Assembly: GCA_963706575.1 (NCBI GenBank)
Contig: CAVPNL010000006.1
Span: 640,001 to 704,000, forward strand
From: an uncultured delta proteobacterium
GTDB lineage: Bacteria > Desulfobacterota > Desulfobacteria > Desulfobacterales > JAHEIW01
Direction: 5' to 3'
DNA length: 64,000 nt
Shown: piece by piece, positions 37,002 through 64,000 of the stretch
Layout: the number at the start of each line of letters is the position of its first letter
How positions within the stretch are numbered: position 1 is the stretch's first letter
Translations under genes and position numbers: made by a program
The notes under the pieces: model-generated
Database searches by the model: none
What the model was told of the DNA's origin: nothing
The model's input: only the letters and a program-made list of their open reading frames with translations

Positions 37002-37655
37002 TTATCTTGATGAAAGTTTAAATGTATTCATAACACCGTGGCAGCTGCAGGCGGTACTGAGTATTATCGGCTTTTGAGCGGCCTCAATTTCATTTAAGGC
37101 TGCAAACAAGGTTTGGGGGGTATACCCACCCACCCCGGGTGCCAGTTGATGGCTTCGAATCACAATGGTTTTTAGGTCTTTTCGCTGAATTGATTTCAGA
37201 AATTCATGCAGGACCATTAACCGCGGTTTAGCGGTATGGGTGCAGATTTCATCCGGCTCAGGGCAATTTTCGGGGCATTTAAAATCGGCGATACTGATAT
37301 AAATTTGGCCGGTTTCTGCGTTTATCGGATTGGGAAGTTCAGTGACGAGATCCTGCGGTACGGCGATTTTTTGTACGATGCGGGTCTTTGATAGTTTTGT
37401 TCTGATCCACTCATATGCCGTATGCAAAGGGATGGCGGGTACAATCCAGTCGGGATAAGGCGGGCTCGCCAGGTTGCGTTCAAGGTATTGAATACCGTCC
37501 ATGCAAACCGCCTCAAACCCCAGCCGATCCAACTGTCTGCATACCGTTTTTTCCTTCTCCACAATGGTCAGGTTCGTTAAGGGATGTTTTTTGCTGAGTA
37601 CTCTGGCGGCCCTGAGGCCAAATTTACCGCCACCGATGATCCAAAAGTTGTCCAC
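37002..37655 (-). CDS. Rossmann (TrkA-N-like) protein with Cys-rich C-terminus
   Basis: IIGGGKFG; CPENCPEPDEIC; TACSCHG. Confidence 0.7.
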   Translation of the reverse strand: MDNFWIIGGGKFGLRAARVLSKKHPLTNLTIVEKEKTVCRQLDRLGFEAVCMDGIQYLERNLASPPYPDWIVPAIPLHTAYEWIRTKLSKTRIVQKIAVPQDLVTELPNPINAETGQIYISIADFKCPENCPEPDEICTHTAKPRLMVLHEFLKSIQRKDLKTIVIRSHQLAPGVGGYTPQTLFAALNEIEAAQKPIILSTACSCHGVMNTFKLSSR

Positions 37656-37903
37656 GGCTGATTGTCCATAGCGGTTGTCAATATGTTCTATATGCCGGAT
37701 TTGCTAACAAGCGAAATGGTAGTTTGTAACGGCTTAAAATTATTAACGCATGACAACCGCTATATTATTATTTTTAACAAACAAGGTTATGAAGAAAAAT
37801 TACTAGAGCGTTTGGACCAAGTTACATTATACGTTCTGAATAACCCAATAAAGACTCAGAAAACTGCCTATATCGGAATAGTATTATGCCAAACGCTCTA
37901 TTT

Positions 37904-38626
37904 TCAAGAACCGGTGCTTTGCTTTTTAAGCATGGCGATCGGTTTTGCCATATCCAGAATATGGTTGTGAATCATTTCCAACTGATCCCCGGGTGCACCC
38001 AGCATCAGATCACATGGATCCACCGATGATTTTAGTCTGCAACCCAAACCCAAAAACGTAATGTTAGAAATCCCTTCAAGAAGGGGCAGGGCCGTAATAT
38101 CGGCACAGCCACCCAATGCGCCGCCGGATTGAGGAAGATCCATGCGCCCGCCCTTTTCATAATTCAAGGCGTAAAGCAGCCACATGACCTGCTCACTGTT
38201 GGCGGTAAATATCAAAACCTGCGGTGTTTGTTTGAAATATGACAGCGGCGCGATCAGAGCGGCCCGGGTTTTGCCTTTTTCCAGGTACGATGATTTGAGA
38301 ATCGTTTCAGCAGAAGCCTCTTCTGTTTCAAAGAGGCCCACACCGTACTTTTCTAAAACGCCATCATCCAGGAAGGCTTCCATGTCTTTTTCAAAACCCA
38401 AAACGGATGTTCCCAGTTTGCAGCCCATTTGCTCTTTTTTCAGAAGCAAGACCTCACCCTCACCGGCGGCGACCAGCGCATGGCAATAGCTTTTGTATTC
38501 TTTTTGCGTGAAGGGCACCTCGGTCGGCAACGGGTCTGTTTCCTGGTAAAGCAATACGCCAACCGGCTCATATTGAAGGGACAGGCTTTTAACCAGGTCT
38601 TGAGAAATGGTTCGAAAATCGTTCAT
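37904..38626 (-). CDS. DUF169-like protein
   Basis: EPVGV, YCHA, GCKLG, GCAD, LGCR Cys pattern. Confidence 0.7.
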   Translation of the reverse strand: MNDFRTISQDLVKSLSLQYEPVGVLLYQETDPLPTEVPFTQKEYKSYCHALVAAGEGEVLLLKKEQMGCKLGTSVLGFEKDMEAFLDDGVLEKYGVGLFETEEASAETILKSSYLEKGKTRAALIAPLSYFKQTPQVLIFTANSEQVMWLLYALNYEKGGRMDLPQSGGALGGCADITALPLLEGISNITFLGLGCRLKSSVDPCDLMLGAPGDQLEMIHNHILDMAKPIAMLKKQSTGS

Positions 38627-38864
38627 GTCATCTGCCTCATCATTTAGATTTTAATGAATTCGTAAAATGCTGAATTCGTCAAGTGTTTGGTGTTTCGTAT
38701 TTTGTGTTTCGTATAGCGTATATGACTATTTATCAATTTGATACAATTCTAAACACTAAACACCAAATACTAAACACTCTCGTAGCAAAAAAGCCGGTAA
38801 CAGACAACCGCCTTCTGCTGTCAAACTTGACACAAAATCATGAAACGAATATTAATTATAGCAA

Positions 38865-38882
38865 TTGTCATAAATATGACAA
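38865..38882. promoter_or_regulatory. 18-bp palindromic operator downstream of TTGACA (38827)
   Basis: TTGTCATA-AA-TATGACAA perfect inverted repeat in a divergent intergenic region. Confidence 0.55.
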
Positions 38883-38972
38883 ACACTCTATCTGAGCGGT
38901 CCGGAAGTTTTACCGTCATGCCCGCCTTCCAGACTGTCTCGTAATAATCAAGCGAGAAAAATGAGCCTTTTT

Positions 38973-39051
38973 GTCATTCCGGGCTTGACCCGGAATCCAG
39001 TGTTTTTTGAAAGTGTTACAGTGCTGGATGCCGGATCAAGTCCGGCATGAC
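38973..39051. repeat. GTC/GAC-type REP-like double hairpin
   Basis: Same family as 34619-34688; enclosed by AGACTGTCTCGTAAT / ATTACGACACAGTCT inverted repeats. Confidence 0.8.
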
Positions 39052-39133
39052 AGGCAGAATTTTAGCGCTATTTTGAATTACGACACAGTCTACTTTGCGG
39101 GATCTCATGTTTATACTGGAGTTTACTACGAAT

Positions 39134-39661
39134 ATGAATCGCAAAGGCTTACTGCTAATTTATACAGGCGAAGGCAAGGGAAAGACCACCGCGGCTTTAG
39201 GATTGGCGCTCAGAGCGGCCGGGCAGGGGCTGAACGTGCTTATTCTGCAGTTTATGAAACGCAATAAAAAAATTGGTGAATTCAAAGCGTTGGTCAAGGC
39301 CGGACTCCCCATCACCATGCGACAGTATGGACGGCGGGTTTTTTTCCGTACGAGGACCTGCGAGCCTATGGATATTTATCGGGCGCATCAGGGCCTTGAG
39401 GCTTTCAAAATAGCGATGAAAGACAATGCCTACGATCTCATCGTTCTGGATGAGATCAATATGGCGGTTCATTACGGTTTATTGAGTATTGCAGAAGTCG
39501 TCGCCGCAATTGAGCAAAAGCCCCCGGAACTGCATCTGGTGCTGACCGGCCGGAATGCGAATCAAAAGCTAATTGATATGGCCAACCTCGTAACTGAAAT
39601 GCGCGAAATAAAGCATCCTTACCACCAGGGGGTCTATGCCCAACGCGGAATCGAATTTTAG
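39134..39661 (+). CDS. cobO: Cob(I)yrinic acid a,c-diamide adenosyltransferase (CobO/BtuR)
   Basis: YTGEGKGKTTAALG, LQFMK, LDEIN, VLTGR, KHPY..AQRGIEF. Confidence 0.93.
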   Translation: MNRKGLLLIYTGEGKGKTTAALGLALRAAGQGLNVLILQFMKRNKKIGEFKALVKAGLPITMRQYGRRVFFRTRTCEPMDIYRAHQGLEAFKIAMKDNAYDLIVLDEINMAVHYGLLSIAEVVAAIEQKPPELHLVLTGRNANQKLIDMANLVTEMREIKHPYHQGVYAQRGIEF

Positions 39662-39739: not shown

Positions 39740-40501
39740 ATGGGTACTTTAGGAATTTTAACCTGTGAGATTCTGGAACTGGAATTTGCCAGGCTTTTGG
39801 CTGCGGACAAAGAAGTGAACCGCATTACGGTTCTTGAAGATGAACGCTCTGCTAACTTTATTGCAGCGCTTGAATCCATAAAAAAAGACAACTTAAAACG
39901 AATCACCAGCTTCAAGGCATTTACCCCTGCCGCCGAAAGCCCGCTGGAAGTCCTGGTTGGTGTTTTGGAGTTGGCTTTGCACAATCGCAAACACACCCTT
40001 CAACAGGGTTTAATTGAGGCCGCAGCTACAATTGGGCCCCATGTAGATGCCCTGATGCTCGGATATGGTTTGTGCGGTAACGCATTGGAAAACCCTCAAG
40101 AACTGCTCTCCGATGCCGGTGTGCCCATTTTTATCCCCATGGATGAGGATCATCCGGTTGATGATTGTATCGGTCTGCTCATCGGCGGGCGCGAACGGTA
40201 TTACGAAGAACAATGTGAGGTAGCGGGCACGTTTTTTATGATACCGGGCTGGACATACCACTGGAAGCGCATGTTTGAGCAGGAGTTTGGCAACCTGAGC
40301 CATGAAATGGCCAAACGGCTATTCAAAAATTACGAACGGTCACTTTTGATTTCGACGCCCATTATGTCCCTTGCAGACATGCAAAAAAATTCAAAAGCCT
40401 TTAATGAGTTGTTCGGTCTGCGTACCGATGTTTGCAACGGCACCCTCAGCATTCTCCAGAAGACCTGGGATACGGCTAAAGCACACTTGAATTCAACTTG
40501 A
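39740..40501 (+). CDS. DUF1638-like protein
   Basis: LELALHN, GYGLCGN, VDDCIGLLIGG, FFMIPGW. Confidence 0.8.
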   Translation: MGTLGILTCEILELEFARLLAADKEVNRITVLEDERSANFIAALESIKKDNLKRITSFKAFTPAAESPLEVLVGVLELALHNRKHTLQQGLIEAAATIGPHVDALMLGYGLCGNALENPQELLSDAGVPIFIPMDEDHPVDDCIGLLIGGRERYYEEQCEVAGTFFMIPGWTYHWKRMFEQEFGNLSHEMAKRLFKNYERSLLISTPIMSLADMQKNSKAFNELFGLRTDVCNGTLSILQKTWDTAKAHLNST

Positions 40502-40823: not shown

Positions 40824-40846
40824 AAAATCAACTATTAGACGATTTT
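40824..40846 (+). promoter_or_regulatory. Shared operator copy 1 (half-site at 40802)
   Basis: AAAATCAACT-ATT-AGACGATTTT; AAAACCATCT 22 bp upstream. Confidence 0.75.
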
Positions 40847-40904: not shown

Positions 40905-41861
40905 ATGCCTGACGAAACCCAAACTAAGCGTTTTATATATCCGACCCAGGGCGTTTGCCCCCCTGAGATTCATTTTAAACTCGATAACGGCATTCTTGAG
41001 GAAATCCGTTTTGTGGGGGGTGGCTGTCCGGGTAACGCTCAGCTGGTGGCGCGTCTTTTAGAAGGAAAGCCGCTGGCAGAGGCCCTGGAATACCTCGTCG
41101 GAATTGATTGCCGCAATGGAACCTCCTGCCCCGCTCAGCTGGCTGCTGCCGTTACCGCCGCTAAAAATGGCAACCTGACGCCCGCCGAATCTTTTCGGGT
41201 TCATGCTGACACTTCCAACAGATGCCGGATCGGCCTTATCAGTTCCATCGAAGGCAATTCCGTTATTTTGCAAAAACTCATGCAACACATGCAAGCCAGT
41301 GGAATAGACGCCTGCTATTGCCTCGGCAGCCTGACGGGGGATTGTGCTCATAACAAAGATTTGATTCAGAATATACGGAAACACAACATTTTTGCGATTC
41401 AGGGGGAAGGCGACTGGTGCTATGCCCAGGGTCAAGAAAAAAAGAACATGCCGCCACTCGAACAAAAGGACAGGGATTGGCTGTTGCGCTTGCCTCAGGT
41501 ACTGAGTTTTCAAATGGAACATAAAAAAGGATTTGTCTTTTTCGGCGATTATATTCAGTCACTTCCTGATTATTCTGACTTTGAACCCTTTGCCCTGGAA
41601 ATGAATATGGTGTGCGGGTTGACCCATTTCATGCAGGATGAAACCGTTTTTCCGGCCCTGGAGGCCATGATACCCCAATTTCGAGCCGATATTATTATTT
41701 TTGGCCAGCTCAAACGCTGGGGTCATTGGCATATTGCCGGCAAGGATTTCATCAGTCTCGGGCCTGCATCGGACGCAAAGGGGCTATCCTGGGGTCAGCT
41801 GGAAGTGGCTGATGAAAAGATCGAATTTAAGATCATGCAGGCTGAATACGAAGGAGGATGA
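40905..41861 (+). CDS. TSCPD-type 4-Cys domain fused to a degenerate metallophosphoesterase-like domain
   Basis: GVCPPEI, GGGCPGN, CRNGTSCPAQL; then IGLISSIEGN, CLGSL, IQGEGD, WLLRLP. Confidence 0.75.
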   Translation: MPDETQTKRFIYPTQGVCPPEIHFKLDNGILEEIRFVGGGCPGNAQLVARLLEGKPLAEALEYLVGIDCRNGTSCPAQLAAAVTAAKNGNLTPAESFRVHADTSNRCRIGLISSIEGNSVILQKLMQHMQASGIDACYCLGSLTGDCAHNKDLIQNIRKHNIFAIQGEGDWCYAQGQEKKNMPPLEQKDRDWLLRLPQVLSFQMEHKKGFVFFGDYIQSLPDYSDFEPFALEMNMVCGLTHFMQDETVFPALEAMIPQFRADIIIFGQLKRWGHWHIAGKDFISLGPASDAKGLSWGQLEVADEKIEFKIMQAEYEGG

Positions 41862-41862
41862 T

Positions 41863-42159
41863 TTGACCCAACCCGTTTTGGTGGATGTGCTTTTGACTGA
41901 TTTTCGGCAATGAGTTGCCTGCGTCTATATGGCGGAGTCGGTAAAGGTTTTACCGCAAGACATCCAGGAAATTATCGAAGTGCATGAATGGGATATGCGC
42001 ACCCGAGAAGGGGTGGTGCGCTTTCGGGAACTGAAGGCCAAGTCCCTGCCCAGCGTTGCTTTAGACGGCGACCTGGTTTATGAATCCCTTATCCCCATGC
42101 AGGAAGAACTCATCGACGAAATCCGCAGACGTTATAAGGAAAAGAATCAGAATGAATAA
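41863..42159 (+). CDS. Probable selenoprotein, thioredoxin-like fold, U17xxC20 (98 aa)
   Basis: RBS AAGGAGG (41851) + TTG start; in-frame TGA 41911-41913; ungapped alignment to 61258-61659 places U on Cys17; downstream hairpin. Confidence 0.88.
41934..41965 (+). promoter_or_regulatory. SECIS-like hairpin
   Basis: CGGTAAA-GGT-TTTACCG (41939-41955), extendable by GGA/TCC and GT(C)/(G)AC pairing; loop starts 32 nt after UGA. Confidence 0.7.
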
Positions 42160-43141
42160 TATCTATCTGGAAGATGTTAACATTGAAGGCTTTAAATCCT
42201 TTTCAGAAGAAACCAACATGAGCTTTCAGCCCGGCATCGGCGTTATTATTGGAAATAACGGCGTCGGAAAATCGAATATCCTGGATGCGATTGTCTGGGC
42301 GCTGGGCGAAAATGATCTGGACCGCATCCGTTGTTATGAAAAAGAAGAGTTGTTTTTTGCCGGCAGCAAAGACTATCCGCCGGCACCCAAAATTCGGGTG
42401 GAGTTGATGCTAAAGCAGGGAGAAGAAAAAGACGCACCCGGCATCCAATTGGCCCGTGAGAGAAACAAAAATGGGGACGATCAATACTGGATTGATAAAA
42501 CCAGCTATGCACGCCAAGCCTATCGTGAAAAATTAGATGCCTATAATCTCAGGCATTGTCTGGCAACCATCATCCGGCAGGAACAAATTAATGACATGAT
42601 TCAGCTCGATCCCTGGCAGCGGTTTGACGGCATCCGGCAAGTGCTGGGCCTTGATTCCGAAGAAGAAACCGTTGGATGCCTCAAAGATATCATTGGTCCC
42701 TTATTTCAGCGCTATATGTCTTATCTGATACCGCTTGGTGACGTCGAGCTGGATGTGATTTCAAAAGATGGGCACAGGGGATTGGAGATCGAAGTCAACC
42801 TTCCGGGCAATCGCCTGCGCAGGGCCCATCAATTGTCCGGCGGCGAAAAATCCATTACCAGTCTGGCGCTGAAGCTGGCGATTTTCCACCAACTTGAAAG
42901 CCCTTTTTTTCTGCTGGATGAAGTGGAGCCCTCCCTGGACTATACCAACCACAAGTCGATGCAGACCTTTCTCAAAGACGTGGCCGACAGCAAACAGCTG
43001 ATCATGATTACTCACCTTAGAAGCACCATCGCTCTGGCCAATACGGTGCACGGCGTGAGAACCCGCTGGGATGGATCTTCGTTCATGAAATTTTATTTTG
43101 TGATGGACGAGCGTTTGTTGAGGCTTTATAAGTGCTGCTAA
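42152..43141 (+). CDS. SMC-family ATPase head without coiled coils or hinge (329 aa), C-terminal CC
   Basis: IEGFKSF, GNNGVGKSNILDAI.W.LG, IIRQEQI, LSGGEKS, FLLDEVE, IMITH. Confidence 0.85.
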   Translation: MNNIYLEDVNIEGFKSFSEETNMSFQPGIGVIIGNNGVGKSNILDAIVWALGENDLDRIRCYEKEELFFAGSKDYPPAPKIRVELMLKQGEEKDAPGIQLARERNKNGDDQYWIDKTSYARQAYREKLDAYNLRHCLATIIRQEQINDMIQLDPWQRFDGIRQVLGLDSEEETVGCLKDIIGPLFQRYMSYLIPLGDVELDVISKDGHRGLEIEVNLPGNRLRRAHQLSGGEKSITSLALKLAIFHQLESPFFLLDEVEPSLDYTNHKSMQTFLKDVADSKQLIMITHLRSTIALANTVHGVRTRWDGSSFMKFYFVMDERLLRLYKCC

Positions 43142-43142: not shown

Positions 43143-43886
43143 ATGATTGCGATCAGCGACCTCGATACGGCTATCCATAAGGCCAGGCCTATGCTGGAAA
43201 GCCTGCAGCGCTTATATCAGCGCTTGCCGCAGACCGGCTGCCAATGTGAGCAACCGGGTGTATGCTGTGCATTTTTGCCGGAAATGACATGGATGGAAGC
43301 CGTCCAATGGGCCGGGCTCATCCAGGCAATGCCTGCCGGTGACCGCACGAAGATTCTGCAAAAGTTTTTGGAATTTTATCTGACAAATCCCATTCGTCCT
43401 GCCGGATGTCCTTTCCTGGAAGATGGCGCCTGCACTATTTATGAATTGCGCCCTTTTGCCTGCCGCGCCTATGGTCTGTGGAGCCCCGAATTCGGTAAAG
43501 TCAGAACCCAAAAAAGCCGGCAGGATCGAAAAGCGTTGCTGCAAATGTGGCAAAAATTCGGGCTGGAGCTTCCCCCGCAGACGGTGGAATCTGAAATCGA
43601 TTATTGTGATCGGGTTCGTTGCGCAGCTGAAAAATCGATGTCTGACAGTCAACTCATGGATATCTTGCAGCAGATATATGAACTCGATCAAGCCTTAGCG
43701 GAGCTGCAAACCAGATTTGAAGCTGAATATCATTCCGACTTTAGTTTTTTGATTGCGTCCCTGGCTCTGGGCTATCGCAAAGCAGTCCTCGGGAAATTTG
43801 CCGTTATCAAGGAAATGGTTCAGCAGGGAACCACAGAGCGGCTTGAGCAAATGCTGGGCAAGGCAACTGCAGAGGTGCTTGGTTAA
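43143..43886 (+). CDS. YkgJ-like (CxxCxxCC) cysteine cluster protein
   Basis: GCQCEQPGVCC, CPFLEDGACTIYELRPFACRAYG. Confidence 0.85.
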   Translation: MIAISDLDTAIHKARPMLESLQRLYQRLPQTGCQCEQPGVCCAFLPEMTWMEAVQWAGLIQAMPAGDRTKILQKFLEFYLTNPIRPAGCPFLEDGACTIYELRPFACRAYGLWSPEFGKVRTQKSRQDRKALLQMWQKFGLELPPQTVESEIDYCDRVRCAAEKSMSDSQLMDILQQIYELDQALAELQTRFEAEYHSDFSFLIASLALGYRKAVLGKFAVIKEMVQQGTTERLEQMLGKATAEVLG

Positions 43887-44101: not shown

Positions 44102-45112
44102 TTAAGAAGTTTCAACTATGCAGCGGTTTAATTCTTTGAGCGTTTCATCCGCATTTATTTTCCATCCGATAAAGGCCAGCCGGGTTTCAGCTTCACCTTC
44201 CCATGGGGACCATTCGCTTTTGCCGCCGACAAAATTGAGCATTTCCAAGCGATCCACAAAACGAACCGGGCCTTTAATTCGAAATAATTCCCAGGGTAAA
44301 TTGGTGATAAATTTTTTAAAGCAAGCCTCGTCGAAAATTCTTGAATCATGGAAAGAAAATGTCACAAAGTTAATAGACTTAGCCGGATGGCTGTCGTGTT
44401 CTTCGGGAGAATGATGATGGTCGCTTGAATCAGGTTTGGCGTTTAAAGCCGCAGGCTGGAAAAATTGAATCGGCTTTAATCCAAATATTTTTGGTTGAGC
44501 CTGTGCCCAAAGGGTTTCCGGATCGATTCCGCAGTGAATTGTTGGCACCACCTGGCAGTCGGGTATGACGTCATGGATTTCGGCAAGAAACTGCGGAATT
44601 TTTTCTGCGGCCATTAAATCAATTTTATTTAAAAGGATTAAATTGGCCATTTCAAGCTGGTTGTAAAAAAGCTGTCCGAATACTTCGCGCGCCCCCCAGA
44701 TATCTGCCTCCAACACCGTAATAATTTTTTTAAGTTGCATGTGTTGACCGATCTGCGGATCCTGCAAAACCGTTGTAATCGATTTGGGGTCGGCTACGCC
44801 TGAGGCTTCTATTAAAATACGGCGGGGTTTGAATCGCTTCCAGATGCGCGTCAGCGATTGATGCAAGTCGGCGCTGAGCGTGCAGCAGATGCATCCACTG
44901 GTCAGCTCGATCACGTCAGAACCGCTATCTTTAAGCAAGGCACCATCGATGCCGATGTCGCCAAACTCATTGACCAGGACAACTGTTTCGGAGAGGTCGG
45001 CTTGCCAGGAAAGAATTCTTTTGAGCAGGGTGGTTTTACCCGCCCCCAAAAAGCCCGACAAAAGTAAAATGTCGGCTTTATATTCCGGCTGATTGCCAAG
45101 TGGTGCGCTCAT
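44102..45112 (-). CDS. CobW/COG0523 G3E GTPase metallochaperone
   Basis: GFLGAGKTT, NEFGDIGID, GCICC, IEASGVA, NKID, RIKG, His-rich linker. Confidence 0.92.
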   Translation of the reverse strand: MSAPLGNQPEYKADILLLSGFLGAGKTTLLKRILSWQADLSETVVLVNEFGDIGIDGALLKDSGSDVIELTSGCICCTLSADLHQSLTRIWKRFKPRRILIEASGVADPKSITTVLQDPQIGQHMQLKKIITVLEADIWGAREVFGQLFYNQLEMANLILLNKIDLMAAEKIPQFLAEIHDVIPDCQVVPTIHCGIDPETLWAQAQPKIFGLKPIQFFQPAALNAKPDSSDHHHSPEEHDSHPAKSINFVTFSFHDSRIFDEACFKKFITNLPWELFRIKGPVRFVDRLEMLNFVGGKSEWSPWEGEAETRLAFIGWKINADETLKELNRCIVETS

Positions 45113-47122: not shown

Positions 47123-47241
47123 GCTATCGCCTCCATACCTTAATAATGCACTCAATTTTCCGATCAAATTTTTCTCATACCGTATAACCGATGTCAATGC
47201 ATTCGATTTTATTGTTTATAAAATCATCTATATTCATTCTA

Positions 47242-47264
47242 AAAATCATCTTTTAGACGATATA
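47242..47264 (+). promoter_or_regulatory. Shared operator copy 2 (half-site at 47220)
   Basis: AAAATCATCT-TTT-AGACGATATA; AAAATCATCT 22 bp upstream. Confidence 0.75.
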
Positions 47265-54849: not shown

Positions 54850-54872
54850 AAAATCATCTTTTAGACGATTTT
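54850..54872 (+). promoter_or_regulatory. Shared operator copy 3 (half-site at 54828)
   Basis: AAAATCATCT-TTT-AGACGATTTT; AAAATCATCT 22 bp upstream. Confidence 0.8.
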
Positions 54873-56936: not shown

Positions 56937-59003
56937 ATGGGAGACAAGGATAACAACGCGATGGTTATTTTTCAACCGTCGGGACGAAGAGGCGAGGTGC
57001 CTAAAGGCATCAATGTGTTAGAAGCGTCCAGATTGCTGGGGGCTGATATCGAGGCCCTGTGTGGAGAAAAGAAGGTTTGTGGCAAGTGTAAAGTCCGTAT
57101 CGAAGAAGGCCGTTTTGAGAAATACGGCATCGAGTCCAAAATGACCAACGTTAGCGCCTGGCAGGAAGAAGAAGAAAAGTTTATCTTTCCTAAAGAAAAA
57201 GAGACCGGTCATCGATTGGCCTGCGTCTGCGAAATTCAGGGCGATCTTTTGGTTTTCGTACCGGAGGAATCTCGCGCCGGCAAGCAGGTGGTGAGTAAAG
57301 CGGCCCGGGACATATATATCGAGCATAACCCGGCGGTAAAAATTTACACTGTTAAAGTCGACCCCCCCACCTTTGAAGAACCCACCGCAGATTTTGAACG
57401 CGTCTGCCGGGTACTGGAAAAAGAGCACGGACTTAAAGATCTGGCGGTTGACATATTTGCCTTAAGGCAGCTGCCCACGGCACTGCGCGACGGCGATTGG
57501 TGCGTGACGGTCAGTGTCTGGAACGACAGGGAAGTTGTGCGCTTTCGACCCGGCAAGGCCGAGCGCGCTTACGGATTGGCGATCGATGTGGGCACGACCA
57601 CCGTGGCGGCCTATTTTTGCGATCTGACCACGATGGAGGTTGTCGATACGGTCTCTATGATGAATCCCCAGTGCAAATATGGCGAGGACGTCATGGCGCG
57701 GATCACCTATCACATGACCTCTACCGATGGGTTGCAGCGAATGAACGACGACATCATCGAGGGGCTCAATTCTCTGGTCGATCAGGCCATCCAGAACACC
57801 TATCCGCCCAAGAAGAAAAAGAAGAAGAAAAAAGGTGAAGAAGGACCGGCTGAGTTTGTGGAAGTGCCCGAGGAAGGCAAGACCTATCTGCGCCTGACAA
57901 AAGAAGATATTGAGGATGTAACCATTGGGGGCAACACTGCCATGCATCATATTTTTCTAAAACTCAATCCCGAGCATGTGGGGTTGGCTCCTTTTCCCCC
58001 GGTGATCCATCACAGTCTGGACATCAAGGCCCGCGATATGGGCATCAACATCAATCCCGCTTCTTATGTATTTGTGCTTCCCAATGAAGCCGGATTTGTG
58101 GGTGCGGATAACGTCGGTGTGATGCTGGCCGAAGAGCCGTACAAAAAAGACGAAATCTCACTGATTATTGATATCGGCACCAATGGCGAGCTGGTGTTGG
58201 GCAACAAAGAGAAGTTGATCTCCTCTTCCTGTGCGACCGGTCCGGCCCTGGAGGGGGCCCAGATTGCTTTCGGTATGCGGGCAGCCCCCGGGGCCATGGA
58301 ACGCATCGAAATCGATCCTGAAACGCGGGAGGTGAATTACAAGGTGATCGGCCGCGACGCCTGGCGTAAATATTCGGAACCCAAGGACATGAAAGCCAAA
58401 GGCATCTGCGGTTCCGGTATTTTGGACCTGCTGTCTGAGCTCTACTGTGCGGGGATTATTATCAAAAGTGGCGCATTTAACAAAGAAGCGTTAGCGGGGC
58501 ATCCCCGTTACCGATTGAACCCGGATACCAACCAGCCGGAATTTGTTCTGGCCTGGGCGGAGGAATCCAGCATTGATAAGGACATCGTGGTCACCCAAAA
58601 AGATGTCCGCCAGATCCAATTGGCAAAAGGCGCACTTTATGCCGGCTGTAAGCTCATGATGCAACGCATGGGAATGGAGAAAGTGGATACGATCAAAATC
58701 GCAGGTGCTTTCGGCACCCATGTGGATCGCGAAAAAGCGCTGATTATGGGGCTGTTTCCGGACTGCGAGATCGAAAAGATCGAAAGTGTCGGTAATGCTG
58801 CCGGTGACGGTTGCCGAGCGGCGTTGTTGAATAAGGACAAACGGGAGGAAGCCAACTGGGTATCGCGCAATGTGGAATACATTGAGCTGACCGTAGAGGG
58901 AGACTTCCAGACCGAATTCATGGAGGCCATGCAGATACCGCATATGACGGACGAATTTCCGCATCTGGTCGGTGTCGTCCCCGAGGAAATTCTAAATCAA
59001 TAA
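56937..59003 (+). CDS. ATP-dependent reductive activator of corrinoid proteins (RACE; 2Fe-2S + ASKHA)
   Basis: CGEKKVCGKC, RLAC; IDVGTTT, NPQ..YGEDV, DIGTNGE, CATGPALEG, GICGSG, AGAFG, GNAAG. Confidence 0.93.
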   Translation: MGDKDNNAMVIFQPSGRRGEVPKGINVLEASRLLGADIEALCGEKKVCGKCKVRIEEGRFEKYGIESKMTNVSAWQEEEEKFIFPKEKETGHRLACVCEIQGDLLVFVPEESRAGKQVVSKAARDIYIEHNPAVKIYTVKVDPPTFEEPTADFERVCRVLEKEHGLKDLAVDIFALRQLPTALRDGDWCVTVSVWNDREVVRFRPGKAERAYGLAIDVGTTTVAAYFCDLTTMEVVDTVSMMNPQCKYGEDVMARITYHMTSTDGLQRMNDDIIEGLNSLVDQAIQNTYPPKKKKKKKKGEEGPAEFVEVPEEGKTYLRLTKEDIEDVTIGGNTAMHHIFLKLNPEHVGLAPFPPVIHHSLDIKARDMGININPASYVFVLPNEAGFVGADNVGVMLAEEPYKKDEISLIIDIGTNGELVLGNKEKLISSSCATGPALEGAQIAFGMRAAPGAMERIEIDPETREVNYKVIGRDAWRKYSEPKDMKAKGICGSGILDLLSELYCAGIIIKSGAFNKEALAGHPRYRLNPDTNQPEFVLAWAEESSIDKDIVVTQKDVRQIQLAKGALYAGCKLMMQRMGMEKVDTIKIAGAFGTHVDREKALIMGLFPDCEIEKIESVGNAAGDGCRAALLNKDKREEANWVSRNVEYIELTVEGDFQTEFMEAMQIPHMTDEFPHLVGVVPEEILNQ

Positions 59004-59004: not shown

Positions 59005-59355
59005 TTGCGGTGCATCTTGGCTTCTCAAAAACCAAAATGGGTGTGTGTGACGGTTGATCCGGGAATCTGCGGCTTTCCGTGTGTTATAAAGGCCCGCAAA
59101 ACAGGCGCTCGCGCGGTTTCGCTAAAAATTTCCGGTTCGGATTGCGAGCAGATTCAAAGACTGGCCGAGCGCCTTACGACTTTATCGATAAAAGAGCTGT
59201 TTACACCGCTGAGCCGCAATCCGGTATACATCTCAACTGAAAAGTCGGGTTGCCACCTCTCCTGTGCGATTCCGGTGGCGGTCATCAAGGCGGCTGAAGT
59301 GGCATTGGAGCTGGCGCTGCCGCAGGAAGTCCATATCAAATTCGAAGCGTGCTAG
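59005..59355 (+). CDS. Small Cys-containing conserved protein (DUF6951-like; start may be 59017)
   Basis: DPGICGF, SDC, CHLSCAIP..IKAAEVALELALP. Confidence 0.7.
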   Translation: MRCILASQKPKWVCVTVDPGICGFPCVIKARKTGARAVSLKISGSDCEQIQRLAERLTTLSIKELFTPLSRNPVYISTEKSGCHLSCAIPVAVIKAAEVALELALPQEVHIKFEAC

Positions 59356-59368
59356 GAGCGCAACATCA

Positions 59369-59965
59369 ATGCAAGAATCAAAAGTGGTTCCGTTTAAAGC
59401 CGGTGACGGCATATCGCATACCCTGACCCAGCGTCTGCTGGAAAAGGGCCGGTCATATGGCCTAAATGCGATTTTTCCGTTTGACATCGATAAAATTTCT
59501 GTGGCCGAATGGGTTCATCTTAAATGCCGTTACGGCTGTAACCAGTATAATACGAACTGGTGTTGCCCGCCGGCCACCCCTGATCCGGACAAGGTTCGTG
59601 CCGTTCTGTCGGAGTATTCCACCGCGCTCCTTCTGGTGGGAACCACAAATTGCTCGGACTTTTATCTGAACAACGAACGCAAGCGAATCTCTCAGGTCCG
59701 CTGCTGGAAGGGTACCATCAGCCTGGAACGCATCCTGTTTCTGGAGGGGTATTACAAAGCGTTCAGTCTTGTGGGGGAGTGTTGCGCCCTCTGCAAGGAA
59801 TGCGCCTACCCGGATGATTGCCGCTTCCCGCAAGAAAAAAGACCATCGGTGGAATCATTTTCCATTGATGTCATTGGAACCTTGAAAAATCTGGGTACCA
59901 CTTCAGCGGTTGCCGCTAAAACCTGTGAAACCTACAACTATTATGGCATTATTCTTTTGGAATAA
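59369..59965 (+). CDS. DUF2284-like metal-binding protein
   Basis: KCRYGC..Y..NWCCPP; GECCALCKEC..CRFP..RPSVES.SIDV; RBS AGGAG. Confidence 0.82.
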   Translation: MQESKVVPFKAGDGISHTLTQRLLEKGRSYGLNAIFPFDIDKISVAEWVHLKCRYGCNQYNTNWCCPPATPDPDKVRAVLSEYSTALLLVGTTNCSDFYLNNERKRISQVRCWKGTISLERILFLEGYYKAFSLVGECCALCKECAYPDDCRFPQEKRPSVESFSIDVIGTLKNLGTTSAVAAKTCETYNYYGIILLE

Positions 59966-60195: not shown

Positions 60196-61230
60196 ATGGC
60201 CAAACAAATGTTGATCGATGCCTATCGGGGAAAAAGAACGGAAAAACCACCCTGGGTACCATACGCAGGGGTTCACTGCGCCTTTTTGATCAATGAGCCA
60301 GCTGACAAAATGCTCAAGGATCCCAAGCTTTTGGCGAAAGGAGTCGTTAATGCCGCCAAGAGATACAAAGCGGATGGAATTCCACTGGTATTCGATCTTT
60401 CGGTCGAAGCCAATTCCATCGGGTGCGACCTGAAATGGTGGCCCGACAATGTCCCTTCCGTAACCAATCATCCCTGTTCCGACAAGACTCCCAAAGATGC
60501 CGGGCTCAAAATGCCCACCAAAGAATCGGGTCGCTGGCCGGTGCTTTATGAAGCCGCAAGAATTGCCAAACCTCAGCTGGATGAACTCGATTGCGTCCTG
60601 ATGGGTCTATTTTGCGGTCCTTTGACCCTGGCTTCCCATCTGGCCGGTGTGCGTATCTTTACCGATGTTTACAAAAATCCCGATTTTGCCGCCGAAGTTA
60701 TCAAATTTGCCGGTGAAGTCGGCGCGGCAGCTGCAAAGTTCTATGCCGAGATGGGTTGTGAGATTATCGCCATCGTTGATCCGGTGGCCTCACAGATTAA
60801 ATCCGAGACCTTCCAGAAATTTGTCACCCCCAATTCGCAACCGGCGATTAAAGCGATTCATGATGCCGGAGTGACCTCATCATTTTTCATTTGTGGCGAC
60901 TGCACCAAAGTCATGGAAGATGTCTGTAAGATCGGCACCCACGGCTTTGCCATTGATGAACAGCTCAATATGCTTTTTGTGCGGGATCTGGCACGTAAAC
61001 ACGGGGTGGGCTTTGGCGGCAATTTGAAGCTGACGCTGGCCCTGAGCCTCGGGTTATTGTCTCCCAGAGAGGATGCGATTGTGAGCTTGGCAGCAGGCGG
61101 GCAAGAAGGTTATACCTTCGCCCCTGGCTGAGATATGCCTTACGATGTTCCGGTGGAACATATGGATCAGGCCATCGAAGTCAGAGATTGGTTTGAACAG
61201 TATTATGCCAAGTATCCGGAATCTTGGTAA
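60196..61230 (+). CDS. Probable selenoprotein: MtaA/CmuA (UroD-fold) methyltransferase, Sec312 (344 aa)
   Basis: PWVPYAGVH, FDLSVEA, GPLTLA, VDPVASQI, FFICGD; ..FAPG-TGA(61129)-DMPYDVP.. open to TAA 61228-61230; matches PGCD of paralogue 54981. Confidence 0.9.
61145..61161 (+). promoter_or_regulatory. SECIS-like hairpin
   Basis: ATGTTCC-GGT-GGAACAT; loop starts 20 nt after UGA. Confidence 0.75.
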
Positions 61231-61257: not shown

Positions 61258-61659
61258 ATGGCAGACAAAATTACCATTGATGTGCTGACACTGGACAGCG
61301 TGCAGTGCGCCGCCTGCGGCTACATGATGGAGTCCATCGCCGCTTTGCCATCTGATGTTCAGGATATGATCGTATACAAGGAATGGTCGATCAAAAACAA
61401 AGATGGCATTGGCAAGTTTCTGGAGCTGAAGGGTAAGGTACTACCGACCATCTGTATCGAGCGGGATCTGGTTTTTGAGAGTATCATTCCGCAATATGAG
61501 GAACTGATCGATGAGATGGCCAAACGGGCGCCGAATGACGATATGCGTGATCGTATCCAGGCCCTGCGCGAAACAGGATTTGAGTTCGATAAAATCCAGG
61601 AGAACCTGGCGAAAGCAGGAGCCGGCATGTCGACGCGCACAGATTCCAAAGTGCAATGA
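61258..61659 (+). CDS. Thioredoxin-like protein, C17AAC20 (Cys paralogue of 41863)
   Basis: DVLTLDSVQCAACGYM, VLPTICI, FESIIP; RBS AGGAGG. Confidence 0.88.
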   Translation: MADKITIDVLTLDSVQCAACGYMMESIAALPSDVQDMIVYKEWSIKNKDGIGKFLELKGKVLPTICIERDLVFESIIPQYEELIDEMAKRAPNDDMRDRIQALRETGFEFDKIQENLAKAGAGMSTRTDSKVQ

Positions 61660-61676
61660 TAACTGTATAAACATGC

Positions 61677-61712
61677 ACAAGCCGGGCCCTGCAAAAGGCC
61701 CGGCTTGTTTAA
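61677..61712 (+). terminator. Rho-independent terminator
   Basis: ACAAGCCGGGCC-N8-GGCCCGGCTTGT followed by TTAA. Confidence 0.7.
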
Positions 61713-61730
61713 TTCTACAGGCCGGGAGAC

Positions 61731-62036
61731 GTGTTCCTATTGGAAACCAATGAAGCGGCTGAAAAACTGAAAACGTTTGTCTTAACGCACGACCTGCCCA
61801 AAACAGACATGGCATTGTTCGGCATTAAATGCCCCTATTGCGGAAAATCCGATCGCATCCGGGAGCTGGAAGAACCGGATGCATTGAGCGCGAAGATAGA
61901 TTCGGAAAATGTGGCCATCTATTTTAACCTATGGGATCAACTTGCCCGCTCAAACGGATCGCTGGCAGTCTGCAAATTTTGTCAAAACCTTCTATTGCTG
62001 CAGGATCAGGCAAGTGCTGCACCCCTGTATGAGTGA
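61731..62036 (+). CDS. Small putative Zn-binding protein
   Basis: CPYC and CKFC pairs. Confidence 0.65.
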   Translation: MFLLETNEAAEKLKTFVLTHDLPKTDMALFGIKCPYCGKSDRIRELEEPDALSAKIDSENVAIYFNLWDQLARSNGSLAVCKFCQNLLLLQDQASAAPLYE

Positions 62037-62386
62037 TCTATAAAAGGCGGTAATATTTTTGCGCAGTCGAGTTACTTAAAAAACGCCTGGTTCAAAGGTT
62101 CAACGTTCAAAGGTTCAGGAGTTAGAAAACAGCAAAAATAAGTAAACAGATGTTAGAGGACAGCGGGTATTGTTAAATGTTTAATTGGTTGAATAGTCAA
62201 TTCGTCAGGTGATTTAATCCATTTTAAACTATTTAACCATTCGACCAATTAACGAATCGACTAAACTCACTGACCGGTAGCAAGAACCCAGAACCCTGAA
62301 CCCTGAACCCGAGAACTGACACCTAAGATAAAAACGTATATTGTAAATTATCTTTAAGACGCAACACCAGCGAAAAGGGGTACAAC

Positions 62387-62632
62387 ATGAAAATCGAAGT
62401 TTTAGGGCCCGGATGCAAGCGCTGTGATCAACTCTATGAAAACACCCAAAATGCGGTGGCCGAATTGGATACCCCGGGGCCGATCGAAATTGTAAAAATC
62501 GGGGATATCAATTACTTTGCCAAAATGGGGGTGTTCATGACACCGGGGCTTGTGATTGATGGAGAGGTGGTTTCAACCGGCAAGGTGCTCAGCCCCGATC
62601 AAATCAAGCAAAAGATTGCGGAGAAGATGTAA
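62387..62632 (+). CDS. Small thioredoxin-family redox protein (MTH895-like)
   Basis: MKIEVLGPGCKRC, TPGLVIDG. Confidence 0.9.
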   Translation: MKIEVLGPGCKRCDQLYENTQNAVAELDTPGPIEIVKIGDINYFAKMGVFMTPGLVIDGEVVSTGKVLSPDQIKQKIAEKM

Positions 62633-62635
62633 AGC

Positions 62636-63670
62636 ATGTCGGATGTCACCCGCGTATATTTGATTACCGGTTTTTTAGGCAGCGGTAAAACCACCTTGCT
62701 GAATCGCATTATTCAGCGCTTCCCCAAAGATAAAAAGCTGACACTGCTGGTTAACGAATTCGGTGAAGTCGGTGTGGATGGTACTCTGGTCGAAGGCGAA
62801 GACATCGATATGATGGAAATCAGCAAAGGTTCCATTTTCTGCGTCTGCGTTAAAACCGATTTTATAAAAGGTCTATACGAGCTCAACAGCAAAGTCCAGC
62901 CCGATGTGATGCTGATTGAATCAACGGGTGTGGCCAACCCCTCAGACTTAAAAAAAGATTTAAAACTGCCCATCTTCAATGACCGATTTCATTTCGTGGA
63001 GCAGTTTTGCGTGATCGATGCGGCCCACTTTTTGGATGCATACGGCGTCTATGCCTCTTTAGAAAAACAGATTGCTTCTTCCACCGTATTTATCATTAAT
63101 AAGATTGATACCGCCTCACCTGAAACAATTGAAGAGACTAAAAATGTCATTCGGCAGTTTCATCCCGATCCATTTTTTTACGACACCACCTATGCCGACA
63201 TCCCGCTGGCGGATTTTTTTGATTTAGCAGAACTGGATTTGCCCGATTCCGAAGTGCCGGAACCTAAAAAGGCAAAAGTGTCGGTTCTTTCGGAGGAAGC
63301 GCTTGACCAATTTATTGATGACCTCCTGGATAGCCCGGATCTTGAAATTACGCCACCGGACACGCTCATGTCCGTTACCTATAGCTGGAACGGAGACGAT
63401 CTGGAGCAGGTTAGAGCTATGGCCGAGGCTTTACCCCCTGCTGTAGTCAGGGCCAAGGGGTTTGTCGAAGAAAAAGGTGACATGTATTTGTTCAATTATG
63501 TCATGGGCGATTGGACCGTTGAAAAAACCAATGTGCCCAAGGATCGCATCCAAAACAAAAATATTGTTGTTTTTATTGGGCCGCCTGAATCTATGGAAGG
63601 AATCGAAGGGGCATCCAAAACAGGTGATTGGACCGGCAGAGGGGTATTTCAACCTTACTCGCAAACTTGA
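62636..63670 (+). CDS. CobW/COG0523 G3E GTPase metallochaperone
   Basis: GFLGSGKTT, NEFGEVGVD, GSIFCVC, IESTGVA, NKID, RAKG. Confidence 0.92.
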   Translation: MSDVTRVYLITGFLGSGKTTLLNRIIQRFPKDKKLTLLVNEFGEVGVDGTLVEGEDIDMMEISKGSIFCVCVKTDFIKGLYELNSKVQPDVMLIESTGVANPSDLKKDLKLPIFNDRFHFVEQFCVIDAAHFLDAYGVYASLEKQIASSTVFIINKIDTASPETIEETKNVIRQFHPDPFFYDTTYADIPLADFFDLAELDLPDSEVPEPKKAKVSVLSEEALDQFIDDLLDSPDLEITPPDTLMSVTYSWNGDDLEQVRAMAEALPPAVVRAKGFVEEKGDMYLFNYVMGDWTVEKTNVPKDRIQNKNIVVFIGPPESMEGIEGASKTGDWTGRGVFQPYSQT

Positions 63671-63722
63671 AAAAACAGCAACTTAAATTTATTTGAAACC
63701 ACTTCTTTAGTTACAAAATGAT

Positions 63723-63788
63723 CGTCACTCCCGCGCAGGCGGGAGTCCAGTTCAAAGCCGCTTGGATTCCCGCCTGCGCGGGAATGAC
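63723..63788. repeat. CGTC/GAC-type REP-like double hairpin
   Basis: CGTCACTCCCGCGCAGGCGGGAGTCCA...TGGATTCCCGCCTGCGCGGGAATGAC. Confidence 0.8.
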
Positions 63789-63901
63789 CAGTGGGGAACA
63801 CACATCAGTATTTAATATTATTTTTGACAATATTTCTGGGACACAACATTAGGAATCAGCGGCCAGCGGCTATTGAATTCCATGATGATAAAGGTCTAAA
63901 A

Positions 63902-64000
63902 ATGTCTGAAAACGGAAACCACTATGATTTAATGATTTTGGGTGCAGGGCCCGCCGGCATCACCGCCGCTTTATACGGGCAACGGCTGGGATTGAAAACG
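63902..64000 (+). CDS. Thioredoxin reductase-like FAD oxidoreductase, N-terminus (3'-truncated)
   Basis: [33 protein letters not shown]. Confidence 0.75.

Follow-up and report, generated by a model that had tools for sequence, protein, structure and literature searches.

A predicted selenocysteine-containing MtaA-like methyltransferase with a thioredoxin-like partner in a conserved corrinoid methyl-transfer operon of Desulfobacterales

Methylated compounds of sulfur, selenium, nitrogen, oxygen and the halogens are turned over anaerobically by corrinoid methyltransferase systems. The locus described here lies in a 64,000-nucleotide stretch of the genome of an uncultured delta proteobacterium (assembly GCA_963706575.1, contig CAVPNL010000006.1; C6:640001-704000 in our numbering, hereafter the window), a genome of 5.67 Mb in 25 contigs. 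What can be stated most safely is that it holds an inducible corrinoid methyl-transfer operon of the kind built from MtaA-like methyltransferase (MT), corrinoid protein and RACE (reductive activase of corrinoid enzymes), plus an MtrH-family tetrahydrofolate (THF) methyltransferase, and that the second methyltransferase, here called SecMT, is a new selenoprotein in an unrecognised clade that is coupled to thioredoxin (Trx) and associated with COG0523 GTPases. Genes were called from an open reading frame listing together with Pfam and NCBIfam scans of the window proteins, and these scans recovered all gene classes that an initial annotation had named between 37.0 and 64.0 kb.

Among known systems, the mlp gene clusters for methylselenide come closest. 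According to the available text of Kountz & Balskus (PMC10418091), type 1 clusters consist of Mlp1-3 with His-Cys-Cys sites, a corrinoid protein and RACE, without a THF methyltransferase, and mlp clusters are linked to methylselenide demethylation, including by the sdm genes of Methanococcus voltae, and to methyl-sulfur salvage. The same text reports that ClMlp2 moves a methyl group from methylcobalamin to selenide, that 87% of the cluster-bearing species have selenocysteine (Sec) machinery, and that UroD-family S-methyltransferases have a His-Cys-Cys zinc sphere favouring sulfur and selenium ligands. Our locus shares with these clusters two MtaA-like genes, a corrinoid protein and RACE/Ram, a Cys-rich soft-ligand site and a host that is an anaerobe with Sec machinery, a likeness in the kinds of gene. 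It differs in that one methyltransferase has Phe-Cys-Sec plus C77 and H92 and a dedicated Trx-like partner, and in that an MtrH-family gene stands under the same operator and is adjacent in most relatives. Neither a Sec-containing Mlp nor Trx coupling is mentioned in the available mlp text.

Other known systems resemble the locus in parts. The initial annotation had compared it with CmuA/CmuB and with the mec cassette, and this comparison is one of analogous parts; with mec the locus has in common MtaA/CmuA-like methyltransferases, MtrH-like methyltransferase, corrinoid protein, RACo, sensor kinase and regulator, but the kinase here is of the PAS/HisKA_3 type, not a PocR kinase such as MecA, and neither MecJ nor another cation transporter is found in the locus. 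The accessible part of the mec preprint (bioRxiv 10.1101/2021.08.30.458270) reports neither selenoproteins nor a Trx relay, and states that mec proteins other than MecJ have no close homologues outside dichloromethane and chloroform degraders. CmuA, as far as its description was available, is a fused methyltransferase and corrinoid protein, whereas here the two are separate genes. MtaA itself (PDB 4AY7) belongs to the same URO-D TIM-barrel family and its distal ligand Cys corresponds to U312 of SecMT; the present host is a bacterium, Phe stands at the His position of SecMT, and both methyltransferases score below the curated MtaA/CmuA cut-off. A CobW-like GTPase beside corrinoid methyltransferases recalls COG0523 subfamily 13, for which the consulted part of Haas et al. 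2009 (PMC2770081) describes genes adjoining mtaA, mtaB, mtaC and ram; here CobW follows the SecMT module, and neither a Trx-like module nor Sec is described in that part. Sec in place of Cys at a metal(loid) or redox site is also seen in the Sec-containing arsenite methyltransferase, ArsM/DUF2284 and HUIPC Trx-like proteins (NCBIfam; available text of PMC13188914), and the DUF2284 domain is shared with the ArsM/DUF2284 selenoproteins, but these methyltransferases depend on S-adenosylmethionine and have another fold. In a Gram-positive sulfate reducer, two 'MtaA' and 'B12 synthesis' proteins were co-induced with MtaB and MtaC (PMC5770442, in the part available).

No URO-D, MtaA or PF01208 family stands in the available text of a 2026 review of prokaryotic selenoproteins (PMC13188914), and none in that of Zhang & Gladyshev 2007 on the Olavius symbionts. 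The literature searched contained no Sec-containing MtaA/UroD methyltransferase and no Trx coupling of one; UroD, thioredoxin, corrinoid and methyltransferase occurred together only in the mlp preprint, where thioredoxin appears in a reference title alone. The system is thus less isolated than first claimed, but SecMT is a family new as a selenoprotein, and its combination with an own Trx-like partner was not found described in the literature searched. The genes of the core operon are as follows.

54981..56057, + strand: MT_HxC, MtaA-like (URO-D) methyltransferase with an H-I-C...C motif (Pfam URO-D, E 6e-49)
56096..56767, + strand: corrinoid protein with DxHxxG (Pfam B12-binding and B12-binding_2)
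56937..59003, + strand: RACE-type reductive activase of corrinoid enzymes (Pfam RACo_C_ter, E 3e-94)
59005..59355, + strand: DUF6951, small eight-Cys protein (63/80 related loci; also after RACE in L099)
59264..59965, + strand: DUF2284 metal-binding protein, likely start ATG 59369 (Pfam, E 1.5e-44)
60196..61230, + strand: SecMT, predicted MtaA-like (URO-D) selenoprotein, 344 residues, U312 (TGA 61129-61131; hairpin resembling a Sec insertion sequence, 61145-61161)
61258..61659, + strand: CysTrx, Trx-like protein, C17-A-A-C20 (adjoins SecMT in 67/71 evaluable loci)
61731..62036, + strand: small zinc-ribbon-like protein, CPYC...CKFC (45/80 related loci)
62387..62632, + strand: Thioredoxin_3 protein (CKRC) of the MTH895/ArsE family (TIGR00412)
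62636..63670, + strand: COG0523/CobW GTPase 2 (60/80 related loci)
63791..64000, continuing to C6:704834 (L001:1834), + strand: TrxB-like flavoprotein disulfide reductase with a CSIC motif (Pfam, NCBIfam)

The locus had been proposed to encode two selenoproteins, and both in-frame UGA codons are real Sec codons, as conserved TGA, Cys homologues and downstream hairpins indicate. When the TGA is read as Sec, the second URO-D gene extends from 311 to 344 residues. Codon 312 is TGA in 77 of the 78 orthologues that cover the position among the 80 related loci, TGC being found only in L050, and of the best 120 database relatives 116 are called at exactly 311 residues, that is, ended at the UGA, and three are full-length Cys forms. 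Cys is aligned to U312 in P0006, P0068, P0098, L050 and the paralogue MT_HxC. Beyond the UGA, 76 unique sequences have a third-position entropy of 0 at codons +15 to +27 (five consecutive codons), while the flanking codons have 0.8-1.9 bits and nearby ones vary freely even where the residue is invariant. This frozen stretch folds as AUGUUCC-GGU-GGAACAU, a 7-bp stem with a GGU loop beginning 13 nt past the SecMT UGA. In line with a check that had been suggested, the genome encodes selA, selB, a Sec-containing selD and tRNA-Sec, all above curated cut-offs, as well as carbon monoxide dehydrogenase/acetyl-CoA synthase (CODH/ACS). The TGC orthologue (L050:6647-8281) has GUU in the hairpin loop in place of GGU and CobO, not a Trx-like gene, directly 3'; CobO also immediately follows the SecMT orthologue in L055.

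The best solved relative of SecMT is MtaA of Methanosarcina (PDB 4AY7, E 9e-24), which is likewise the best PDB match of MT_HxC (E 2e-31) and the sole significant PDB methyltransferase match of both proteins. A motif alignment to 4AY7 sets H-I-C-G of MtaA against F-I-C-G of SecMT and the Cys of the MtaA APGC motif against U312 (APG-U), whereas MT_HxC retains H-I-C...PGC. Because of this alignment, the distal zinc-ligand Cys position of SecMT is assigned to Sec, as the initial annotation had anticipated, and its His ligand is lost to Phe231. The classical His-Cys-Cys zinc site is thus found in MT_HxC (H-I-C...C) and not in SecMT (F-I-C...U). Phe231 is present in 78/83 hits, and C77, H92 and C233 are conserved; Cys236 was rejected as a third ligand, being Cys in merely 43/83 hits. 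Pfam URO-D is passed by both enzymes.

CysTrx is the probable partner of SecMT. We modelled the complex with the natural Cys form P0006, 80% identical to SecMT, and the CysTrx of the window, each with its own alignment. The complex score was 0.91 against 0.00 for the best of 3 controls, a mark that 116/157 solved complexes and 2/215 mismatched pairs reach, benchmarks that hold only roughly here because the alignments were our own. At least 90% of contacts are common to the runs, and the partner has a pLDDT (predicted local distance difference test) of at least 88. In the modelled interface, the active-site face of the Trx-like protein (residues 12-19 with C17, plus the loop 61-63) meets the methyltransferase at its barrel mouth, which takes in residues 233-235 and 312-313. 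The model thus supports binding of CysTrx by a methyltransferase of the SecMT type, with its CxxC placed on C233/U312.

Natural fusions point to the same pairing. A search of 1.84 billion representatives returned only 62 proteins at E<=1e-30, and the nearest non-orthologous relatives of SecMT (35-39% identity) include proteins of 455-539 residues in which the methyltransferase is joined to a domain homologous to CysTrx (P0129, P0131, P0132, P0134); an example of the junction and domain reads ...VVTLDSEGCAPCQYMMES... One fusion carries an additional third, Thioredoxin_3-like domain, and in P0156 both Cys of the methyltransferase and the CxxC are lost together. Since the complex model, the natural fusions and this joint loss agree, we consider the SecMT-Trx pairing well supported as a prediction; it may serve thiol/selenol-disulfide exchange, metal hand-over or acceptor presentation. 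The dithiol relay that had been postulated is strengthened by the adjoining Trx-like gene in 67/71 loci, the fusions in other phyla and the modelled placement on the Cys/Sec site.

ESM Atlas clusters that combine URO-D with Thioredoxin_3 have 73, 57 and 239 members, mainly from Bacillota and Chloroflexota. Among 79 metagenome loci with the fused form, C77 is conserved in 73/73, H92 in 74/74, and F231, C233 and Cys312 each in 77/77, and none of the 77 that cover position 312 has TGA there. In the 27 of these loci that are at least 9 kb long, CobW/COG0523 lies directly downstream in 17/27, a corrinoid protein is present in 10/27 and RACE in 5/27. Their neighbours also include MtaB (L099, L157), an MttB-family gene (L091), PF02574 homocysteine-S-methyltransferase-like genes (L133, L157), PocR/AraC regulators, DUF6951 and DUF1638. 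In a quick maximum-likelihood search on 89 URO-D-family rows, with support from the Shimodaira-Hasegawa-like approximate likelihood ratio test (SH-aLRT) only, all 25 rows with the F-x-C motif fell into one clade of 48 rows (SH-aLRT 99), separate from the H-x-C clades with MT_HxC and other paralogues of the same genome; the genome has ten URO-D-family matches. This clade also takes in a sister group that lacks the Cys and retains C77 and H92. SecMT belongs to an MtaA-like clade of its own that is coupled to a Trx-like CxxC module: in Desulfobacterota the module is encoded next to the methyltransferase, in Bacillota and Chloroflexota it is fused to it, and a COG0523 GTPase and a corrinoid protein usually accompany them. 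P0173 and the Cys-less sister group (L-x-R...W) show similarity to the acetophenone carboxylase epsilon subunit (PDB 9FOU, E 4e-14). We rejected an identity of the fusions with the bacterial MTII enzymes already described (MtqA, CdmA, bacterial MtaA) because PMC13222342, in the text available, puts the UroD superfamily with MTI and MTII with AcsE/MetH; it groups CdmA and MtqA with AcsE and MetH and models the tetrahydrofolate (H4F) site of CdmA on PDB 4O1E, which we ourselves read as meaning that these MTII enzymes have the MeTr/pterin-binding fold in place of the UroD one.

The core is a conserved operon of Desulfobacterales. A search for related genomic loci gave 80, nearly all from Desulfobacterales-type metagenome-assembled genomes (MAGs), with others from the Olavius Delta-1 symbiont, Desulfatitalea alkaliphila (L070) and a Desulfococcaceae isolate. 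Gene counts over these loci are lower bounds because many contigs are short: CysTrx-type genes were found in at least 70, DUF6951 in 63, CobW in 60, DUF2284 in 57, RACE in 55, the corrinoid protein in 47, MT_HxC in 46, TrxB in 43 and MtrH in 36. The genes had been expected to co-occur if they form one system, and tblastn with the window proteins shows that they do so in a recurrent order: (V4R-V4R-kinase-regulator)-MtrH-MT_HxC-corrinoid protein-RACE-DUF6951-DUF2284, followed by SecMT-CysTrx-zinc ribbon-Thioredoxin_3-CobW-TrxB and then often by a GcvH-related gene or by PadR-CobW-Thioredoxin_3-MIP-TPR. The reduced loci L057, L077 and L041, from Syntrophobacteraceae-like and other MAGs, have the order DUF6951-SecMT-Trx-TSCPD-SecTrx-Thioredoxin_3-CobW-TrxB (SecTrx being the Sec-type Trx-like gene treated below), without a corrinoid protein in the flank examined, and adjoin BtuCDF-like, CbiX, tetrapyrrole methylase and ThiC-like genes.

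Relatives of the operon also occur in RNA libraries of four studies from sediment, estuary and seawater. Contigs from these libraries cover 29-30 of 30 bins of 54981-63670 at a likeness of at least 90%, and two of them (X15 record 8, X20 record 31) span the SecMT UGA into the Trx-like gene. The higher depth over SecMT-CysTrx in two libraries was unusable for ranking genes because the data are contigs and the runs were found with the window stretch itself. In the spacer 62037-62386, between the zinc-ribbon and Thioredoxin_3 genes, an element of about 210 nt with tandem GTTCAAAGGTTCA copies lies between the imperfect inverted repeats GTTCAAAGGTTCAGG ... CCTGAACCCGAGAAC, and RNA-library contigs of relatives from three runs skip from 62109/62116 to 62284 within it. 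It looks like a small insertion peculiar to the host genome, possibly similar to a miniature inverted-repeat transposable element.

The core operon shares an operator, ATCRTCT-N3-AGAYGAT, with two other units of the window, as had been noticed for three promoter regions.

40827..40843, no strand: operator copy 1 (ATCAACTATTAGACGAT), one mismatch, with the upstream half-site AAAACCATCT, ahead of the TSCPD unit
47245..47261, no strand: operator copy 2, exact palindrome ATCATCTTTTAGACGAT, ahead of the MtrH-like gene
54853..54869, no strand: operator copy 3, exact palindrome, ahead of the core operon
47451..48434, + strand: MtrH-family methyltransferase (Pfam MtrH, E 2e-42; directly 5' of MT_HxC in most related loci)
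48827..49954, + strand: two V4R-domain proteins, putative small-molecule sensors (weak Pfam V4R; kept ahead of the kinase in relatives)
49923..52836, + strand: PAS/HisKA_3 histidine kinase (29/80 related loci) and LuxR-type response regulator (35/80)
52833..54713, + strand: B12-binding/radical-SAM protein, 626 residues (weak Pfam/NCBIfam matches; only 4/80 related loci)

Two copies, at 47245 and 54853, are exact and the one at 40827 has one mismatch, and each is preceded at a distance of about 20 nt by an extra AAAAYCATCT half-site. When up to 2 mismatches are allowed, the window holds 8 matches against 0.75 expected, a number that 0/100 shuffles reach. Related loci have 28 such sites in 24/80, with 13 before MtrH, 6 before MT_HxC and 4 before DUF6951. 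In the host, the MtrH-like gene is set apart from the core operon, 6.5 kb upstream and behind its own copy of the operator, and the B12-binding/radical-SAM gene occupies the usual place of MtrH. The V4R/PAS-kinase/LuxR-regulator system appears to switch the operon on through the shared operator. The MtrH-like protein scores 256 bits with an NCBIfam MtrH-family subfamily model and 150 bits with MtgA, both below cut-off, and is probably a methyl-corrinoid:tetrahydrofolate methyltransferase. A further operator copy with 2 mismatches (34756-34772) precedes an AMP-binding, acyl-CoA ligase-like gene at 34932, which follows a Liv-type ABC transporter set (region 29073-36737). This ligase gene may be an additional regulon member and a hint to a carboxylated substrate.

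The second selenoprotein gene lies in the TSCPD unit. The three Trx-like proteins of the initial annotation are all present, but the UxxC gene that would have stood near 61-62 kb beside the other two is not there; it is the gene at 41863-42159 in the following set, which also gives the remaining genes of the region.

40905..41861, + strand: TSCPD-domain fusion protein, 318 residues (Pfam TSCPD, E 2e-15; 5' of the Sec-type Trx-like gene in 5/17 such loci)
41863..42159, + strand: SecTrx, predicted Trx-like selenoprotein, 98 residues, U17-V-A-C (TGA 41911-41913; hairpin 41940-41954)
42152..43141, + strand: mini-SMC/RecF-like ATPase without coiled coil (Pfam SMC_N, E 2e-44; 3' of the Sec-type Trx-like gene in 5/17 loci)
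43143..43886, + strand: CxxCxxCC protein, putatively Zn/Fe-chelating (PF03692, E 8e-5; same arrangement in L072 and L041)
44102..45112, - strand: COG0523/CobW GTPase 1 (Pfam cobW and CobW_C)
45164..47197, - strand: Fe-S flavoprotein, NuoF-type 4Fe-4S, GltD-like, Pyr_redox_2 (Pfam/NCBIfam; adjoins MtrH in L029 and L053)
37002..37655, - strand: TrkA_N-like NAD-binding protein, 217 residues, peripheral (Pfam TrkA_N, E 1.4e-6; homologues in 6/80 related loci)
37904..38626, - strand: DUF169 protein, peripheral (Pfam DUF169, E 6e-41; 0/80 related loci)
39095..39661, + strand: CobO, ATP:corrinoid adenosyltransferase (Pfam CobA_CobO_BtuR, E 4e-63)
39740..40501, + strand: DUF1638 protein (Pfam, E 1e-35; also adjoins a fused MT-Trx gene in L133)

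SecTrx starts with TTG behind the ribosome-binding site GAAGGAGGA, directly after the stop codon of the TSCPD gene, and its N-terminus reads MTQPVLVDVLLTDFRQ-U-VAC. It is a paralogue of CysTrx, with U17 aligned with C17 (CAAC). Codon 17 of this Trx-like family is TGA 17 times and TGY 70 times in the related loci, and the TGA genes share the hairpin CGGUAAAGGYUUUACCG downstream of the UGA. The nearest model of both proteins is NCBIfam HUIPC_Trx_selen (SecTrx 43.6, CysTrx 31.9, cut-off 105); membership in SaoT or HUIPC was rejected, as there was no match to SaoT and the HUIPC scores lie far below the cut-off. The Thioredoxin_3 protein exceeds the TIGR00412 cut-off of 62 with 83.8 bits, and the TrxB-like reductase has 254.9 bits against a curated cut-off of 343, with its CSIC motif present.

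Three genes have a Pfam cobW domain (E 1e-23 to 3e-44), which places them in COG0523, and the CobW equivalog model TIGR02475 is not reached by these GTPases. The DUF2284 protein has weak NCBIfam similarity to the DUF2284 domains of MbdU and the ArsM/DUF2284 selenoproteins. Beyond the TrxB-like gene follow a GcvH-related protein, PadR, the third COG0523/CobW GTPase and a MIP channel, the last present in 10/80 related loci, and further 3' a small B12-binding protein, an OYE flavoprotein, a second CobO, cobS/cobU/cbiP, TonB-ExbBD and BtuB. A cobalamin riboswitch (103 bits; L001:17544-17730, - strand) precedes the BtuB TonB-dependent receptor/ExbBD-TonB genes, after which come cobalamin salvage genes; with a tRNA it is the sole Rfam match, and no B12 riboswitch was found on the operon. 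The whole window has no Pfam match to MtaB, MttB, MtbB or MtmB, as had been stated before for the locus, and arsR, arsC, acr3 and arsM were found neither in the window nor in the 20 kb downstream. Upstream of about 34.7 kb within the window, no gene looks related to the locus; a protein of 1229 residues with a double zinc ribbon, adenylate/guanylate cyclase, AAA_16 ATPase and TPR is encoded at window:7774-11463, adjoining a tRNA gene at 7157-7228. The host is a Gram-negative sulfate reducer with DsrA, and its CODH/ACS includes CdhC. It also has a tRNA-Pyl (G000:C15:118432-118505) and thus combines Sec and Pyl, a pairing already reported in marine Deltaproteobacteria and in the Olavius Delta-1 symbiont.

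We propose that the operon demethylates a methyl-sulfur or methyl-selenium, or less likely methyl-arsenic, compound into methyl-THF, with SecMT as a second substrate-side enzyme that cycles with the Trx relay, a reading for and against which we see the chances as evenly balanced. The corrinoid protein, held as Co(I) by RACE, would take the methyl group from a small compound that bears it on a soft atom, most probably sulfur or selenium and possibly arsenic; the MtrH-family enzyme would pass it to tetrahydrofolate, and oxidation would proceed by the Wood-Ljungdahl pathway of the sulfate reducer. Two MtaA-like enzymes would serve the corrinoid protein, namely MT_HxC with the classical His-Cys-Cys zinc site and SecMT of the separate clade, whose metal is probably loaded by the COG0523 GTPase. 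Since the CxxC of its partner CysTrx would dock on C233/U312, with Thioredoxin_3 and the TrxB-like reductase to recharge it, catalysis by SecMT would include, or depend on, selenenylsulfide/dithiol exchange.

Several observations weigh against this proposal. The locus offers no decisive substrate clue and no evident methyl-compound transporter, and the V4R sensors with the nearby Liv-type ABC transporter and AMP-ligase also fit an aromatic substrate. Fused relatives share their operons with MtaB (L099, L157) or with an MttB-family gene (L091), which suggests that the trio of methyltransferase, Trx and CobW may be a generic component or helper and not a substrate-specific enzyme. In 5/39 long Desulfobacterota loci the SecMT module is not accompanied by a corrinoid protein in the flank examined; in a sixth, L053, the sequence ends before the expected place. 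Both methyltransferases remain below the TIGR01463 (MtaA/CmuA) cut-off of 235.4 (SecMT 134.5 bits, MT_HxC 167.8 bits), and Cys236 is not conserved (43/83). The tree is a quick search with SH-aLRT values only, the complex was modelled with a stand-in methyltransferase of another organism and own alignments, and the RNA-library contigs attest presence in RNA libraries, which is no proof of transcription or its level.

Among the other explanations, selenium salvage as in type 1 mlp survives best, and we hold it to be unlikely. Here the methyltransferases would demethylate dimethylselenide, methylselenol and other methyl-selenium compounds to selenide for a host rich in selenoproteins, the Trx system would reduce oxidised selenium species, and THF would be merely a methyl sink. 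The available text of PMC10418091 ties the combination of MtaA-like enzyme, corrinoid protein and RACE to methylselenide and shows ClMlp2 acting on selenide; the complete Sec machinery of the host fits the 87% of mlp-bearing species that have one, and MT_HxC has the His-Cys-Cys site. Type 1 clusters, however, are described there without a THF methyltransferase and with His-Cys-Cys Mlps, whereas here MtrH belongs to the regulon and SecMT lacks the His, and an operon under a sensor kinase resembles a catabolic one more.

That F-x-C...C/U methyltransferase, Trx-like partner and COG0523 GTPase form a device for maintenance or maturation of the corrinoid protein, which might dealkylate wrongly alkylated or adenosylated cobamide or load a cofactor or metal without being specific to a substrate, seems rather improbable. 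The trio does stand beside different substrate methyltransferases (MtaB, an MttB-family gene, MT_HxC), the reduced Desulfobacterota loci put it beside CbiX, BtuCDF-like and ThiC-like genes, and two CobO genes and cob genes lie nearby. Yet its place is inside an inducible operon, where it shares the operator of the catalytic genes, the operon is without a B12 riboswitch, and operons of corrinoid methyltransferases are often near B12 genes anyway.

ArsM/AS3MT enzymes work through a Trx-dependent disulfide cascade, and a cobalamin-dependent analogue is conceivable in which methyl-THF is the donor and the corrinoid protein hands the methyl group on to As(III), or to Sb, Te or Se(IV), held on C233/U312, the oxidised product being reduced with formation of a Se-S bond that the Trx relay reopens. 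We find such redox-coupled metalloid methylation rather improbable. A dedicated Trx relay on a Cys/Sec site would fit a two-electron step in each turnover, the Thioredoxin_3 protein belongs to the MTH895/ArsE family above cut-off, a MIP channel lies downstream in the host and in 10/80 loci, and DUF2284 domains are found in ArsM/DUF2284 selenoproteins (NCBIfam names; PMC13188914 in its available text). But no arsR, arsC, acr3 or arsM was found in the window or the 20 kb downstream, the operons of the fused relatives are catabolic ones of the methanol and MttB types, and the characterised systems of two methyltransferases, corrinoid protein and RACE are all known to run in the demethylating direction.

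O-demethylation of methoxylated aromatics or use of halomethanes (Cmu, Cdm or mec type) is very improbable indeed: the part list matches the mec cassette as described in the accessible part of bioRxiv 10.1101/2021.08.30.458270, V4R domains occur in sensors of aromatic compounds (NCBIfam MobR match) and a Liv-type transporter with AMP-ligase lies upstream, but UroD-family O-demethylases have their Cys ligands replaced and CdmB is metal-free in the texts available while both methyltransferases here keep Cys/Sec, MtaA is the only significant PDB methyltransferase match, mec proteins except MecJ are reported there without close homologues outside dichloromethane/chloroform degraders, and the kinase lacks a PocR domain.

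Going beyond the proposed demethylation, we put forward tentatively, and as unlikely on present evidence, that SecMT and its Trx partner are an undescribed redox-coupled corrinoid methyltransferase in which Cys233/Sec312 would hold the substrate, by a covalent bond or as a ligand, and go through a selenenylsulfide as it cycles. In one version (a), methanethiol or methylselenol would be held as an enzyme-Se-S(Se)-CH3 adduct from which Co(I) takes the methyl group, with a per(seleno)sulfide as the leaving group; in the other (b), the enzyme would methylate or demethylate arsenic or other metalloids by a Challenger-type chemistry that depends on cobalamin and is driven by Trx. If version (a) were true, it would supply a missing route for the degradation of methanethiol and dimethylsulfide by sulfate reducers, and if the redox-coupled enzyme exists in either form, the Cys-type Trx-coupled clade would be an overlooked part of those operons of Bacillota and Chloroflexota that serve methylotrophy of the methanol and MttB types.

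How sulfate reducers deal with methyl-sulfur and methyl-selenium compounds is a poorly defined matter, and the operon is widespread in Desulfobacterales of sediments, estuaries and wetlands and in a gutless-worm symbiont, besides its presence in the RNA libraries of four studies. SecMT is routinely annotated as a truncated 'uroporphyrinogen decarboxylase' of 311 residues, and the family is missing from the 2026 catalogue of prokaryotic selenoproteins as far as its text was available. With Desulfatitalea alkaliphila (L070) there is a cultured carrier in which the question can be tested directly. The MtaA-like clade, which spans several phyla together with its Trx-like module and a COG0523 GTPase, points to a redox or metal-handling step that is missing from current corrinoid schemes.

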